Positions 9,848 to 22,668 are shown, counted from the first letter of the stretch. The stretch: 64,000 nt of DNA from a virus (IMGVR_UViG_3300036985_007703:32001-96000), one strand, 5' to 3'. Notes: generated by a model not told the origin, from the sequence alone. Numbers and translations: made by a program.

Positions 9848-10705
9848 TTAGTTGCGCTTGCGCCGCTGCCCCTTGGCCGGAGCCGCGTCCCGCGCCGGCG
9901 TCCGCCCCACGCGAGGCTCCTGCCAGGGGTGCCGCCAGACCGCCACCGCCACGCGCCCCTCGTCGCCGTCCGCCAGGTCCAGGGCCCGCACCCACGCCGG
10001 GGTCTCCTCCAACGCGCGGACCACGTCCGCGTCCGAGGCCTCCGCGCCCTCTGCCCCCCACAGGGCATGGGGGCGCCCCGTGTCGGGGTCCTCGTACCGC
10101 CACTCCGCGAGCCGCGCGCGCCACTCGTCCGGCGGCACGCCCTCCTCAGGGATCGGCTCCCAGGCGAACCAGGCCGTCAGGGGCACGCTGTCGCCCCCCG
10201 GCTGGGGGCGCCGCGCCCAGGACCGCCGCCCCTTATTGGGGAAGCCCGCGCTCGTCGCCTCGACCAGGCTCCGCAGCCGCTGGCTCAGCGACACGGCCTC
10301 GCCCTTCAGCGTCCAGGGCCCCTCGAACTCCGCGCGCCTCTTGCCCACGAGCTTGTAGTACTTCGCGTCCTTCGCGGCGTGGTTCCGGTCCTTCTGGTGC
10401 TTCTGGATGTACTTGCGCCCGCGCGGCGTCTGCTGGTGCGGCTTCGTCCGCTTGAAGTACGGCAACTTGGGCCCGTGGTGCAACGCCGCGACCCCGCGCG
10501 CGATGGCGTGCGCCGTCGGGGCGTCCGAGCGCCGCGGGGGCCCCTTCTTCCGCAGCCCCCCCACGATCGCCACCACGGCATGCCGCGTGTAGGGGTCCGC
10601 CGCCCGCGGCTTCTGCACCTTGATCGCGGCGCCCCCGTGGGGCGTCTTCCCCTCGACCAGGGCCCGCAGGCGCGCGCTGAGCCGCTCCCCGCGCGTCAGC
10701 AGCAC
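9848..10705 (-). CDS. Putative internal head protein with two leader motifs (basic module plus second module)
   Basis: LSARLRALVEG near the N-terminus and LSQRLRSLVEA internally; start uncertain (GTG 10705). Confidence 0.6.
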   Translation of the reverse strand: MLLTRGERLSARLRALVEGKTPHGGAAIKVQKPRAADPYTRHAVVAIVGGLRKKGPPRRSDAPTAHAIARGVAALHHGPKLPYFKRTKPHQQTPRGRKYIQKHQKDRNHAAKDAKYYKLVGKRRAEFEGPWTLKGEAVSLSQRLRSLVEATSAGFPNKGRRSWARRPQPGGDSVPLTAWFAWEPIPEEGVPPDEWRARLAEWRYEDPDTGRPHALWGAEGAEASDADVVRALEETPAWVRALDLADGDEGRVAVAVWRHPWQEPRVGRTPARDAAPAKGQRRKRN

Positions 10706-10709
10706 GGCG

Positions 10710-11033
10710 TCAGATGCTCCACGCATCCCAGGCCGCCTCAAACTGCTTGTGCGCCTCGGCCACGGCTGCCTGCGCCTCGAAGATCTCCCGCGCGCCCTTC
10801 GCCATGTCCGTGGCCTGGTATTCCCTAATCGGCACGTCGATCTCCCAGTGCATCAGCGGGCGCACCCCCGCCATCTCCTTGCGCTTCTTCTCCAGGCCCT
10901 TCACCGCCTGGGTCAGGGCCTCCGCCGCCTTGAGGACGGGGTCCACCTTGGGGATCGGCTTGCGGGTCTTCAGGATCTCCGCCGGGATGGTCACCTCGTC
11001 CAACTGCCGGATCAGCGCCTTCATGCTCCTCAT
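10710..11033 (-). CDS. Putative internal head protein (leader MRSMKALIRQLDE)
   Basis: ATGA overlap; shared leader motif. Confidence 0.65.
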   Translation of the reverse strand: MRSMKALIRQLDEVTIPAEILKTRKPIPKVDPVLKAAEALTQAVKGLEKKRKEMAGVRPLMHWEIDVPIREYQATDMAKGAREIFEAQAAVAEAHKQFEAAWDAWSI

Positions 11034-11359
11034 ACGGGTCTCCCCATCGCGAGTTCCCAGGCGTTCATCACGCCCCACTTGGCCTCGTCAATAGCGATCA
11101 GTTGCTCCTGGTACGCCGACATCGCCTGGCGGTCCGCCCGGTCCAGCCCCTTGACCAGCTTGGCCAGGGCCGCGACCTCCTTGTCGAACCGCGCCACCGC
11201 CGCATGCACGCCCTTGAGCACGGCCTCCGTCGGCACGTGCATCTGCTGGTTCCGCTGGTCGATCTCGCGCCGCCGCGCCTCCTTCGACTGGAAGTCCCCC
11301 GGCGCCACCTCGCGCCGCCGCTGGACGCCCTCGATCACCGCGCTCATCCGCTGTGCCAT
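11030..11359 (-). CDS. Putative internal head protein (leader MAQRMSAVIEG)
   Basis: GGAGGAG RBS; shared leader. Confidence 0.65.
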   Translation of the reverse strand: MAQRMSAVIEGVQRRREVAPGDFQSKEARRREIDQRNQQMHVPTEAVLKGVHAAVARFDKEVAALAKLVKGLDRADRQAMSAYQEQLIAIDEAKWGVMNAWELAMGRPV

Positions 11360-11361
11360 CG

Positions 11362-11706
11362 TCACTCCTCCGTATCGGGGTGGGCCGCGCCGTGCGCGAA
11401 CCCCACCTGGAACAGCAGCCCGTCGACCGCCTTGTTCAGCGCGATCACCGCCGCCTGCATGCGGGGGTCCGTCGCCGGGCGGTCCAGCCCCTGGACCAGC
11501 TCCGCTACGCGCCCCGCCGCCTGCTGCAGCGCCGCCGCCTTGGCCCCCGCGGCCTGGCGCGCGTTGGCCACGCCCCGCGCATCCTGCGGGGAGCGCCACG
11601 CCACGTTCATCCCGCTGGTGACCTGCCCCCAGTTGGGGGGCACGCCCTCGGCCAGCAGCCCCGAGGCGACCAGACTCGCCTCGATCATCGTGCGCATGCG
11701 CGTCAT
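11362..11706 (-). CDS. Putative internal head protein (leader MTRMRTMIEA)
   Basis: AAGGAGG RBS; shared leader. Confidence 0.65.
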   Translation of the reverse strand: MTRMRTMIEASLVASGLLAEGVPPNWGQVTSGMNVAWRSPQDARGVANARQAAGAKAAALQQAAGRVAELVQGLDRPATDPRMQAAVIALNKAVDGLLFQVGFAHGAAHPDTEE

Positions 11707-20636: not shown

Positions 20637-20645
20637 GGCCCCAGC

Positions 20646-20948
20646 CTACCGCCGCGCGGGCCGCCCCGCAAGCTCGTCCCCCGCCCCCGATGGCACGAGC
20701 CCCGCCGCCTCCGCCTTCTCCTGCAGCGCCTTGAGCGCGAACGCAAACAGCTCCGCCGGGGGATGCCCATAGGCCCGCCCCAGGGCCCGCGCGCGCTCCC
20801 AGGTGTCCCGCGTCACGAGCATCATCACCAGGTCGTCGTGCTGGAGGTCGGCGTCCGGCCGCGGGTCGAGCTTGCCGTCCTCGGCCCCCGCGATCTCCCG
20901 CTGCGGCCCCCCGCGCGGCCCCCCGCGCGCCTGTGCCCGCATCACCAT
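20646..20948 (-). CDS. Hypothetical protein
   Basis: TGATG coupling to upstream gene. Confidence 0.55.
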   Translation of the reverse strand: MVMRAQARGGPRGGPQREIAGAEDGKLDPRPDADLQHDDLVMMLVTRDTWERARALGRAYGHPPAELFAFALKALQEKAEAAGLVPSGAGDELAGRPARR

Positions 20949-21706
20949 CAGATGGCCGTCTGGTCGAGCTTGCCCACGCTGTGATCCGCCCCGTTCCAGG
21001 TCTTATCGTCGAGCTTGTACGGCGCCGCCCCGCTCCCCACCGCGTCCTTCTGCCGCCCCACGTAGGTCACGCCCTTCATGGGCTGCTGCACCACCTGCCG
21101 GAACGTCAGGGCCACCGTAGCGAGCCGCGGCACGCCGTTCGAGAAACAGAGGCTGTACGTCACGTCGCAGCCCGTCATCACCGCGAAGATCGCGTCCCCG
21201 CCCTTCTCATTCCAGTTGAGCCCCGGCGCGTGCAGGATCGCGATCGGCGGGGGGTACGCCTCCACGTGCGTCTCCCCCTGCATGTACAGGGGGTAGCAGA
21301 ACGCCCGCAGGTAGCGGATGGCCCCCGCGACGTCCGAGTTCCACTTCGGCGAGTCCGACCCCTTCGTCATCCCAAAGGGGTCGAAGAGCTTCTCCATCAC
21401 CGTGCGGTCGCCCTCCGGCTTCATGAGCCGGCTCATGGTGACCTCGAACGAGATCGTGCGCCCCCCGTTGCTGCCCCACGTCGCGAGCGCGTGCGAGGCC
21501 CCAGGGATCTCGCTGAAGTTCCAGCCGATCTCGATCGTGTCGGAGATGCTCTCGGGCCAGTACTGGAAGGCACGCTGCGGGATCGCGGGCTTCCCCGCGT
21601 CCGCCGCCAGCGCGTCGATCCCGCACATGCTCATCCACGCCGGCTTCTCGCCGGTGGGCCCGTCCATGATAATGCTGGCGATGCCGCCGAAGACCCCGAG
21701 GGCCAT
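20948..21706 (-). CDS. Tail-tube initiator / CIS-tube (gpU, Afp7/Pvc7-like) baseplate protein
   Basis: FQYWPESIS...W...IPG...W...GGRTISFE...PPP...VMTGCDVTY..F..GVPRLATVALTFRQ pattern. Confidence 0.75.
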   Translation of the reverse strand: MALGVFGGIASIIMDGPTGEKPAWMSMCGIDALAADAGKPAIPQRAFQYWPESISDTIEIGWNFSEIPGASHALATWGSNGGRTISFEVTMSRLMKPEGDRTVMEKLFDPFGMTKGSDSPKWNSDVAGAIRYLRAFCYPLYMQGETHVEAYPPPIAILHAPGLNWNEKGGDAIFAVMTGCDVTYSLCFSNGVPRLATVALTFRQVVQQPMKGVTYVGRQKDAVGSGAAPYKLDDKTWNGADHSVGKLDQTAI

Positions 21707-21732
21707 GCCTCACCTCCCGCGGCGCCCCGCGC

Positions 21733-22668
21733 TCACTCCGCCGCGTCGATCGTGCGCATCGCGAGGTCCACGGTCCGCGCGCTCACCTTCGCGTTCAGCC
21801 GCTGCAACTGCGAGGGGGGGAGCCCCAGCTCCCGCAGGGGGGCCTTCGCGCGCTGCACGAACCGCTGCGCCTGGTCCACCAGGGGCCCCGCAGCCGCGAG
21901 CACCGCCGCCGCCTCGCCGTCCTCCGTCAGCGCCCCGAGCGCATCGACGAGGAGCGACGCGTAGACGTAGGCGAGCCCCGCCTGCGCCACCTCGTTCGGG
22001 CTGACCACCGTGGCCTCCGCGACCGCCTTGCCCCTGCCGCCCTTGCCCTTGCCCTTGGCCTTGCCCTGGCAGGCCTCGCACCCAGGGCAGTCGCACCCCG
22101 TGCAGCCCTTGCCCTTGGCCGCCTTCTTCTTGCCCTTGCGCCCCTCATCGAGGATCGCCCGGAGCGACGCCAGCAGGGGGTCCGCCCCCTCCATCTCGGG
22201 CTCCGCGTCGGCCGCGCTGCCGTTGGGCTCCTCGGGCTCCAGGTCCTGCGCCCCCTCGTCCTCCAGGTCCGCGCCCTCGTCGCCCTCCGCGATGGCCCAG
22301 CCCACGGCGCCCTCCGCGTCGATCGCCAGCATCGTCTCGTCGTCGAGCATGATCACGGCGCCCGGCGGGTCCTCATCCAGCGCCACCCCCACGACCTCGG
22401 CCGTGGTGTCCGCCGGCACCTCGACGGCCTCGCCGTCCTCCGTGTATGCGATCGTGTCGCTGACCGCGACGAGGGGCACGCCCTCCTCCCAGCCCGCGAA
22501 CAGGTCCTCCTCGGCCATCGCGTTGGGCTCCTCCGGCTCCAGGGCCTCCCCGTCGCCTTCGAACCCCGCGTCCACGGTCTCGCCCTCGGCCTCCGCGCCC
22601 TCGCGCACCACGGCCACGGCCTCGCCCGCCTGCCCCTTCAGGGCCTCCATCAGTGCTCGCATCGTCAT
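21733..22668 (-). CDS. Highly acidic leader-tagged protein (scaffold/core-like)
   Basis: MTMRALMEA leader; LEPEEPN twice; internal LRAILDEG; CTGCDCPGCEAC flanked by Lys-rich runs. Confidence 0.7.
   Translation of the reverse strand: MTMRALMEALKGQAGEAVAVVREGAEAEGETVDAGFEGDGEALEPEEPNAMAEEDLFAGWEEGVPLVAVSDTIAYTEDGEAVEVPADTTAEVVGVALDEDPPGAVIMLDDETMLAIDAEGAVGWAIAEGDEGADLEDEGAQDLEPEEPNGSAADAEPEMEGADPLLASLRAILDEGRKGKKKAAKGKGCTGCDCPGCEACQGKAKGKGKGGRGKAVAEATVVSPNEVAQAGLAYVYASLLVDALGALTEDGEAAAVLAAAGPLVDQAQRFVQRAKAPLRELGLPPSQLQRLNAKVSARTVDLAMRTIDAAE

Follow-up and report, generated by a model that had tools for sequence, protein, structure and literature searches.

Why should a peptide that marks the beginning of some genes recur in the middle of others? 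The question is raised by a run of small genes in a phage that is known from metagenome contigs alone. The stretch of DNA analysed here (the window, 64,000 nucleotides) corresponds to bases 32001-96000 of one linear IMG/VR virus contig of 168,532 bases (IMGVR_UViG_3300036985_007703), which has 70% G+C and is ~83% complete according to CheckV. The true genes of the region are all on the minus strand, and the run extends from position 22668 down to 9848 of the window, most of its genes opening with one short leader peptide, which we call the tag. An initial annotation had proposed that the tag recurs inside five of these genes, which would be either fused cargo cassettes or polyproteins processed by the head protease. 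We found that the five leader sequences are present in the named genes, on the minus strand, and that three of the genes (12174-12695, 16038-16706 and 9848-10705) carry an internal copy that scores or reads like a true tag. From their statistics and their variation among relatives, these internal tags are very likely real and mark the borders of exchangeable modules. We consider it reasonably likely, if by no means certain, that the three genes encode two-part precursors, for which we infer loading through the tags and cleavage at the Glu of each tag.

The tag and its internal copies

The tag opens ~20 small genes of the array. It is an amphipathic peptide of ~11-15 residues that comes in two forms, a short type, with the consensus M-x-x-L-[IL]-x-x-L-x-E-[AG] (copies in the window read M-x-x-[LM]-[IL]-E or else M-x-x-L-[IL]-x-R-L-x-E, then A or G), and a long type, or type B (L-S-x-R-L-x-x-L-[VIM]-E, then [GA]). 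The ending [LIMV]-x-E, mostly followed by A or G, is shared by the N-terminal tags and the three internal ones. Leu at tag position 4 is written with four different codons and is replaced only by M or V, which indicates that the tag is conserved at the level of the peptide.

We collected the 18 N-terminal tags of the window, in two registers, and trained on these alone an 11-column position-specific scoring matrix (PSSM). Leave-one-out scores of the true tags range from -2.6 to 24.0 bits, 15 of the 18 reaching at least 8.7. Internal hits of at least 16 bits occur three times in the 209 predicted minus-strand proteins, versus 0.05 in shuffled sequences (100 shuffles); two of them are the internal leaders of 12174-12695 (21.0 bits) and 16038-16706 (24.3 bits), and the third lies in a second array outside the window. 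The internal copy of 9848-10705 scores only 6.2 bits with the matrix and is an exact fit to the long type, whose pattern L-[SA]-x-R-L-x-x-L-[IVLM]-E has six matches in the six-frame translation, all in the coding frame and five of them N-terminal, where 0.003 would be expected. The three stronger internal leaders of the initial annotation are therefore borne out. Further tagged genes are present outside the window, at genome positions 102168-107224 and 142376-143436. Among them is a fourth gene with two tags (genome 104676-105250, minus strand; N-terminal tag 16.2 bits, internal tag 17.8 bits at genome 104945), which is part of the second tag array, between a tape-measure-like gene and the genes for tail tube and sheath.

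Two protein families joined in gene 12174-12695

A phmmer search with the product of 12174-12695 against 1.84 billion cluster representatives gave 380 matches at E <=0.001, the best 150 of which were re-scored against each half of the protein separately. Half 1 alone is matched by 73 of these 150 representatives and half 2 alone by 74, whereas both are matched by only 3. Judging from these matches, the halves are separate protein families, and each exists without the other in other genomes, a point that the initial annotation had named as a check. The first family (module 1) is found in proteins of 75-916 aa, at the N-terminus, within the chain or in tandem, and the second (module 2) mostly makes up stand-alone proteins of 62-90 aa. 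No match to either was found in Pfam or PHROGs, family members and ten long module-1 proteins included. The two-module form is kept in two close variants of the phage, L002 (a 161-kb contig, 88-98% identical over the alignable parts) and L017, as well as in P0006 and P0009, and its two halves share one frame, the G+C content at third codon positions (GC3) being 0.93 and 0.97.

An AlphaFold2 (AF2) model built from a 92-sequence alignment (mean predicted local distance difference test, pLDDT, 90.5; predicted template modelling score, pTM, 0.57) shows two confidently predicted domains with the tag helix between them: helices at residues 13-82, the tag helix at 85-101, flanked by dips in pLDDT, and an alpha/beta domain at 105-171. 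Foldseek gave no PDB match for this model, and the best Z from VIA-align was 4.2. In BFVD, module 2 matches an unnamed 67-aa viral protein (V9QKW2; template modelling score 0.83 on the target, E 4e-4).

A tag of at least 12 bits lies within 30 aa downstream of module 1 in 15 of 71 representatives (0.1 expected), the parts that are C-terminal of module 1 and its tag are unrelated among representatives, and several module-1 proteins end a few residues past a tag-like helix. Because of these three features, "module 1 plus tag" looks like a unit that receives varied cargo, rather than like neighbouring genes that recently lost a stop codon. One long member of the family, P0017 (811 aa), has module 1 followed by repeated domains that are split by acidic linkers ending in L-D-E-A, and resembles a polyprotein chain with gp21-type sites and no full tag. 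The apparent homologues L003-L005 were rejected, as they show only a short local likeness (G-N-W-M-F-G-I-G) within 218-aa proteins of other prophage-like contigs.

Exchanged partners in the 9848 family and full-length homologues of 16038-16706

The basic module of 9848-10705, module 1-prime, is a diverged relative of module 1 (module-1 hidden Markov model, E 2e-4). Seven homologues of the gene were found, at 50-90% identity and covering only about half of the query. In all seven the basic module is flanked by two long-type tags, and its partners differ: the family includes three different C-terminal modules, an extra N-terminal domain, and a SprT-like metalloprotease domain placed in front, with one three-part protein composed of the SprT-like domain, the basic module and a module Y. 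Altogether the basic module is found in four different C-terminal states and with two N-terminal additions. The L002 counterpart of 9848-10705 ends 9 aa past the second tag, and DNA homology between the window and L002 breaks at ~10258, which is the 3' edge of the tag. No relatives were found for the C-terminal module W of the window's gene, which is in frame and has a GC3 of 0.96.

In 16038-16706, residues M75, L78, I79, E80 and R81 of the internal leader are invariant in 5 homologues, and its two halves have the same frame, with a GC3 of 0.90 and 0.96. The gene has four full-length homologues (81-91% identity), with in-frame indels in the faster-evolving N-domain. An AF2 model of this protein is of low confidence (pLDDT 52) and was used for secondary structure only. 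The mid-protein leader that had been annotated here is thus real as a motif, whereas its halves were not found apart, the only homologues being the four full-length ones. On these comparisons, the case for 16038-16706 is weaker than that for the other two-part genes.

Cassette turnover among close relatives

Comparison with the close variants shows that the array is changing. L002 is without two cassettes (window 13087-13686) and has unrelated cassettes in place of 15154-17949. Gene 17223-17609 is free-standing in the window and in L017, and is joined in frame to a tag plus a new module of ~230 aa in L002. L017, a third variant, is without the 15780 cassette. The junction left by this difference consists of sequence that matches the start region of 15780 upstream (34/35 nt) and the 15424 cassette downstream (36/39 nt), with a hybrid tag between the two, which indicates that the crossover of this deletion is inside the tag. 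Every tag has the same reading frame with respect to its cargo, so that tag-to-tag recombination can delete, insert or swap modules without loss of frame.

A change of the array by gain, loss and fusion of cassettes is therefore supported, by L002 and L017 as well as by the partners of the 9848 family and the two families of 12174-12695. As to how fusions arise, the joining of modules itself holds, since the halves of 12174-12695 exist separately and 17223-17609 is fused in L002, but we found no support for the loss of stop codons that the initial annotation had invoked. In-frame recombination from leader to leader would explain the module swaps at least as well, because the leader-like helix recurs behind module 1 in the 15 of 71 representatives mentioned above, and forms the C-terminal end of some proteins. 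A frameshift or an assembly error behind the fusions was rejected: GC3 is 0.90-0.99 in a single frame across both halves, and independent contigs carry the fused forms.

A T4-type head module with a gp21-family protease

The genome carries a head module of T4 type, with a gp20 portal (Portal_T4, E 3e-49), a gp21-type protease and a gp23-type capsid protein (Gp23, E 3.5e-63). The protease is recognized by Peptidase_S77 (gp21 family, PF03420; 66.4 bits, E 1.9e-19) at genome 129811-130326; its gene (genome 128695-130299, minus strand; L008:3696-5300) encodes a gp21-type domain fused to a scaffold-like coiled-coil tail of ~350 aa. No HK97-type S78 protease was found in the genome. The capsid protein contains Q-L-L-E-G and I-L-L-E-N upstream of the start of its Gp23 domain. 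Since it is at most 35% identical to any counterpart from a cultured phage, the lineage is deep and uncultured; megablast of the region and tblastn of 12174-12695 gave no match in cultured phages.

Two observations concern tag-like sequences in this module. The tail of the protease itself contains R-E-L-I-G-L-L-E-G (12.8 bits) ~80 aa from the C-terminus, possibly a self-processing site. In addition, an open reading frame (ORF) between the portal and scaffold-like genes (genome 131547-132434, minus strand; L008:6548-7435) has R-M-R-M-R and then N-L-A-H-L-I-E-A-G in mid-protein; the latter is tag-like (6.3 bits), and this ORF may correspond to two genes or contain another internal tag.

Processing at the tag and its alternatives

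How would the two-part proteins be used? We propose that one or more tags would carry the whole precursor into the prohead core, and that the gp21-family protease of the phage would then cut after the Glu of L-x-E at the end of each tag, freeing inside the capsid a basic, carrier-like module and a separate cargo module. The tag DNA, with its constant frame, would double as the crossover point at which modules are deleted, inserted or swapped, which would account for the occurrence of both fused and free forms in close relatives. We favour this reading because the protease family is present, because the length of the tag, its amphipathic form and its terminal [LIMV]-x-E fit, and because the capsid protein has similar sites; cleavage by the head protease in particular is suggested by the gp21-family enzyme encoded in the genome together with the L-x-E form of the tag. 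Moreover, tags stand at both ends of module 1 and of module 1-prime, which is the layout of a polyprotein at the level of sequence.

Several observations weigh against this proposal. The tag and the T4 capsid targeting sequence (CTS) have no common sequence, and the tag-bearing genes sit among tail and baseplate genes, outside the head module. The motif [LIMV]-x-E is short and common. The N-domain of 16038-16706 has no tag of its own, and no split, shorter or recombined form of this gene was found among shorter proteins or viral contigs. A candidate for a stand-alone gene made of a leader and module 2, P0012, had to be rejected, as only 11 nt separate its start from the end of a 540-nt contig. 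Finally, a Shine-Dalgarno (SD) sequence and an ATG before the internal tag of the 12174 type are kept in a homologue that is only 54% identical in protein sequence (L018, from a phage with 59% GC; AGGAGGA, 7 nt, ATG at the equivalent site), which makes internal initiation possible.

The last point leads to an alternative in which 12174-12695 and 16038-16706 would each give, by an internal translation start, a shorter tag-plus-cargo protein besides the full-length one. At true starts, a strong GGAGG-like SD mostly precedes the ATG by 4-8 nt, x-x-ATG often comes next, and the internal sites of both genes copy this context (SD, ATG, x, x, ATG). The ribosome-binding-site-like sequences noted there by the initial annotation are confirmed and have normal spacing (GAGGA, 4 nt, ATG in 12174-12695; GGAGGGGG, 5 nt, ATG in 16038-16706), and an SD-like 5-mer at -17 to -4 is present at only 7.9% of the 720 internal in-frame ATGs of the genome. 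In 12174-12695 an out-of-frame TGA (12445-12447) also overlaps GAGGA, matching the stop-plus-SD layout upstream of the gene's own start, and in T4 gp21 an internal start, at Met45, is functional (PMC9026906). We nonetheless regard internal starts as an unlikely explanation. In GC-rich codon usage, Glu-Asp and Glu-Gly automatically spell GAGGA or GAGGG, so that what looks like an SD may simply come with an acidic linker. Distant module-1 proteins retain E-[SD]-M but leave no space for an SD. The core Met, moreover, is conserved even in those N-terminal tags whose translation begins at an ATG further upstream. The internal tag of 9848-10705 has no ATG and no usable SD, those of its family (P0157-P0163 included) have no Met and no usable SD, and that of the L002 fusion of 17223 type has no ATG and no SD. 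Since many internal leaders are thus without a start codon and must act as peptides, we favour cleavage over internal starts. The internal initiation envisaged in the initial annotation is therefore plausible for these two genes and fails as a general rule, and it may add to cleavage there rather than exclude it.

Two further readings dispense with processing. The tag could be an uncleaved docking or linker helix that binds the scaffold, the portal or another partner from anywhere in the chain, with the two-module proteins staying intact. Tags at N-terminal, internal and C-terminal positions, including module-1 proteins that end right behind one, would agree with this, as would the 16038-16706 fusion, stable in all known homologues; in T4, targeting and processing are separable, an Asp at the P1 position stopping cutting and not loading (PMC9026906). 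We think this rather improbable, however, as nearly all tags end in [LIMV]-x-E, mostly followed by A or G, which is the form cut by gp21-type enzymes, and the independent histories of the flanking modules suit release better than a fixed two-domain protein. Alternatively, the repeats might act mainly as DNA or RNA, as a recombination hotspot or a site of translation control, with the peptide being incidental. Crossovers are indeed located inside tag DNA, 18-bp palindromes lie just upstream of several tags, and intergenic repeats drive cassette shuffling in T4-type phages (PMC2839356, PMC4122927). But synonymous codons and conservative substitutions vary freely at conserved tag positions, the tag is kept as a peptide in phages of 59% and 70% GC, and it is found deep within long ORFs that have no start signals, all of which makes a role mainly as nucleic acid very improbable.

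Returning to the proposed precursors, a broader and more tentative idea, which we hold to be possible rather than probable, is that the tag is a position-independent element for both loading and release: an uncultured clade of T4-like phages would string cargo behind the basic carrier module 1, and new combinations would arise by in-frame recombination at the tags.

Two weaker motifs at charge switches

The initial annotation had also read VAALMEA in 17606-19294 and LRAILDEG in 21733-22668 as weaker copies of the leader. This did not hold up, as their PSSM scores (8.2 and -3.9 bits) cannot be told from chance. For these two motifs, the resemblance to the tag is probably fortuitous: internal hits at such levels are common, with 13 at 9 bits or more versus 3.7 expected and 36 at 6 bits or more versus 15. 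On the other hand, both lie exactly where a very acidic stretch gives way to a very basic one, the net charge of the 60 aa before and after being -23/+16 for VAALMEA and -21/+9 for LRAILDEG, and a layout of acidic part, G-R-L-E-E-G and basic part recurs in a head-module gene beside the protease. From this context, the two motifs may be plain maturation sites even though they are not copies of the tag (Table 1). The L002 homologue of 21733-22668 diverges ~35 nt downstream of LRAILDEG.

The head-module gene in question (genome 130499-131527, minus strand; L008:5500-6528) adjoins the protease gene. Its 342-aa product has an acidic N-part, G-R-L-E-E-G, a very basic centre and an acidic tail, a layout that matches the surroundings of the weak motifs in 17606-19294 and 21733-22668.

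Table 1. Features of the window, numbered from its first base
Position	Strand	Feature	Basis
9848..10705	-	285-aa gene: type-B leader, basic module 1-prime, second type-B leader, C-terminal module W	ORF translation
10256..10288	-	Internal type-B leader LSQRLRSLVEA, aa 140-150	Pattern statistics, DNA
10649..10681	-	N-terminal type-B leader of 9848-10705	PSSM scan, pattern
12174..12695	-	173-aa gene for a putative two-module precursor: N-terminal leader, basic helical module 1, internal leader, alpha/beta module 2	ORF translation
12177..12386	-	Module 2: alpha/beta domain of ~70 aa, elsewhere mostly stand-alone	phmmer, BFVD
12396..12437	-	Internal leader, aa 87-100, MTKMQSLIRRLEEA; candidate L-x-E cleavage sites E98/E99	PSSM 21.0 bits
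12438..12446	-	SD-like GAGGA (12442-12446) and 4-nt spacer CACC, then internal ATG	
12438..12653	-	Module 1: basic four-helix domain, unannotated family	phmmer, AF2
15715..16060	-	Start regions of cassettes 15780-16022 and 15424-15768; leaders are the crossover of the cassette indel relative to L017	
16038..16706	-	222-aa gene: leaderless helical N-domain, internal leader, C-domain	ORF translation
16452..16484	-	Internal leader MSSLIERLQEG, aa 75-85	PSSM 24.3 bits
16485..16497	-	SD-like GGAGGGGG (16490-16497) and 5-nt spacer ACTCC, then internal ATG	
18560..18580	-	VAALMEA in 17606-19294; candidate L-x-E maturation site at acidic-to-basic switch	8.2 bits
22141..22164	-	LRAILDEG in 21733-22668; candidate cleavage site at acidic-to-basic switch	-3.9 bits

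Other features of the array and its surroundings

No match to the array proteins was found in Pfam or PHROGs, and their cargo parts have no family in common. Gene 13708-15066 (minus strand) encodes a tagged protein of 452 aa with the zinc-metalloprotease motif H-E-L-G-H and a weak aminopeptidase match (E 0.025), and P0157, a relative of the 9848 family, has a SprT-like domain with H-E-L-C-H-H. Because of these motifs, part of the tagged cargo may consist of proteases. The array also includes an untagged conserved gene for a 123-aa protein with a C-C-C-V cysteine run (window 12706-13077, minus strand), which is present in both L002 and L017.

An 18-bp palindrome, (TGCGCA)x3 with 0-2 mismatches, was found at window 9816-9833, 13687-13704, 19321-19338 and 22708-22725. 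Copies flank the array on both ends and closely precede the tagged starts at 13699, 19294 and 22668; with up to 3 mismatches allowed, the window contains 9 matches versus 0.12 expected. In frame, the palindrome translates as R-M-R-M-R, which is found ahead of several tags.

The window further carries baseplate genes, coding for gp25, a spike OB domain, a P2-I-like protein and a sub-threshold CIS_tube-like protein. In a distant relative (L007, IMGVR_UViG_3300042731_011014; 177,890 bp, 39.5% GC), no tag array was found beside the tube-like gene. The tube-like protein of this phage is 35% identical, and a neighbouring protein, with an acidic part and then a tail rich in Cys and Lys, is reminiscent of 21733-22668.

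Comparison with known systems and significance

The closest parallel is the loading system of T4. The T4 CTS is a peptide of 10 residues that loads unrelated proteins into the prohead core (PMC9026906, PMC5694885, PMC3012670), residues 4 and 7 serving targeting and residues 8 and 10 processing (PMC9026906, PMC5694885), and T4 gp21 cuts after Glu at I-T-E, L-T-E and L-I-E (PMC5694885, PMC9026906). T4 Alt is trimmed at both ends, and foreign proteins are packaged, and also processed, when joined to IPIII or its CTS (PMC9026906, PMC5694885, PMC3012670). The present genome resembles this system, which serves IPI, IPII, IPIII and Alt, in its gp21-family protease, gp20 portal and gp23 capsid protein, in having one short tag common to otherwise unrelated and often basic small proteins, whose set varies among relatives, and in the [LI]-x-E ending of the tag, comparable to the T4 sites (PMC5694885, PMC9026906). 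By these sequence features the array fits a CTS/gp21-type system. It differs from T4 in the ~20 tagged genes of the array and the additional ones elsewhere, compared with 3 or 4, and in the presence of tags inside and at the end of proteins, where they join modules.

The order of basic carrier, tag or cleavage element, and cargo last is also that of the engineered fusions of T4 IPIII to foreign proteins (the expression-packaging-processing approach of Hong and Black), which enter the head entire and are processed there (PMC9026906). Those are man-made, whereas the layout described here is natural and recurrent, with module 1, a tag and varied cargo in at least 15 protein clusters. Giant phages offer another comparison, since a single head precursor can be cut at several sites (PMC10052503): in phiKZ, 201phi2-1 and SPN3US, long propeptides are cut at several A/S-x-E sites by a gp21 homologue (PMC10052503, PMC5694885), which recalls the several putative protease sites, each with cleavage after Glu, in the proteins of the array. 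The N-terminal parts of the giant-phage proteins, however, are propeptides that are mostly degraded and expelled, whereas each part here is a conserved folded domain that also exists alone. With the promoter/stem-loop (PeSL) cassettes of T4-type genomes, the array shares short repeats at gene borders that are breakpoints between close relatives (PMC2839356, PMC4122927); PeSLs are intergenic regulatory DNA, while the repeat here is a coding tag, whose crossovers yield in-frame chimeras. Lastly, the SD and ATG inside 12174-12695 and 16038-16706 are similar to the nested in-frame arrangement of T4 gp21 and gp21s (Met45; PMC9026906), but these two starts are predictions and most internal tags of the family have no start signals. 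Three features thus appear to set this array apart from the systems described: a tag that acts as a joint between, or sometimes stands after, conserved domains that also occur by themselves, a basic carrier-like domain that recurs ahead of the tag, and a coding tag that is the point of recombination.

If the precursor reading is correct, a capsid-targeting tag of T4 type would work between and after domains, and not just at the N-terminus, and it would be at once a cleavable joint and the place where recombination exchanges cargo without loss of frame. The way in which such phages assemble and refresh their large complement of packaged, and probably injected, proteins would then be explained. 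Two widespread domain families that have no annotation would be defined, one of which is likely to be a carrier, and the same natural layout would offer a plan for bringing foreign proteins into phage heads. Should the tag prove to be independent of position, as we more tentatively suggest, these genes would be nature's equivalent of the engineered T4 IPIII fusions, and in-frame recombination at the tag would represent a general route by which phages diversify the proteins they inject.

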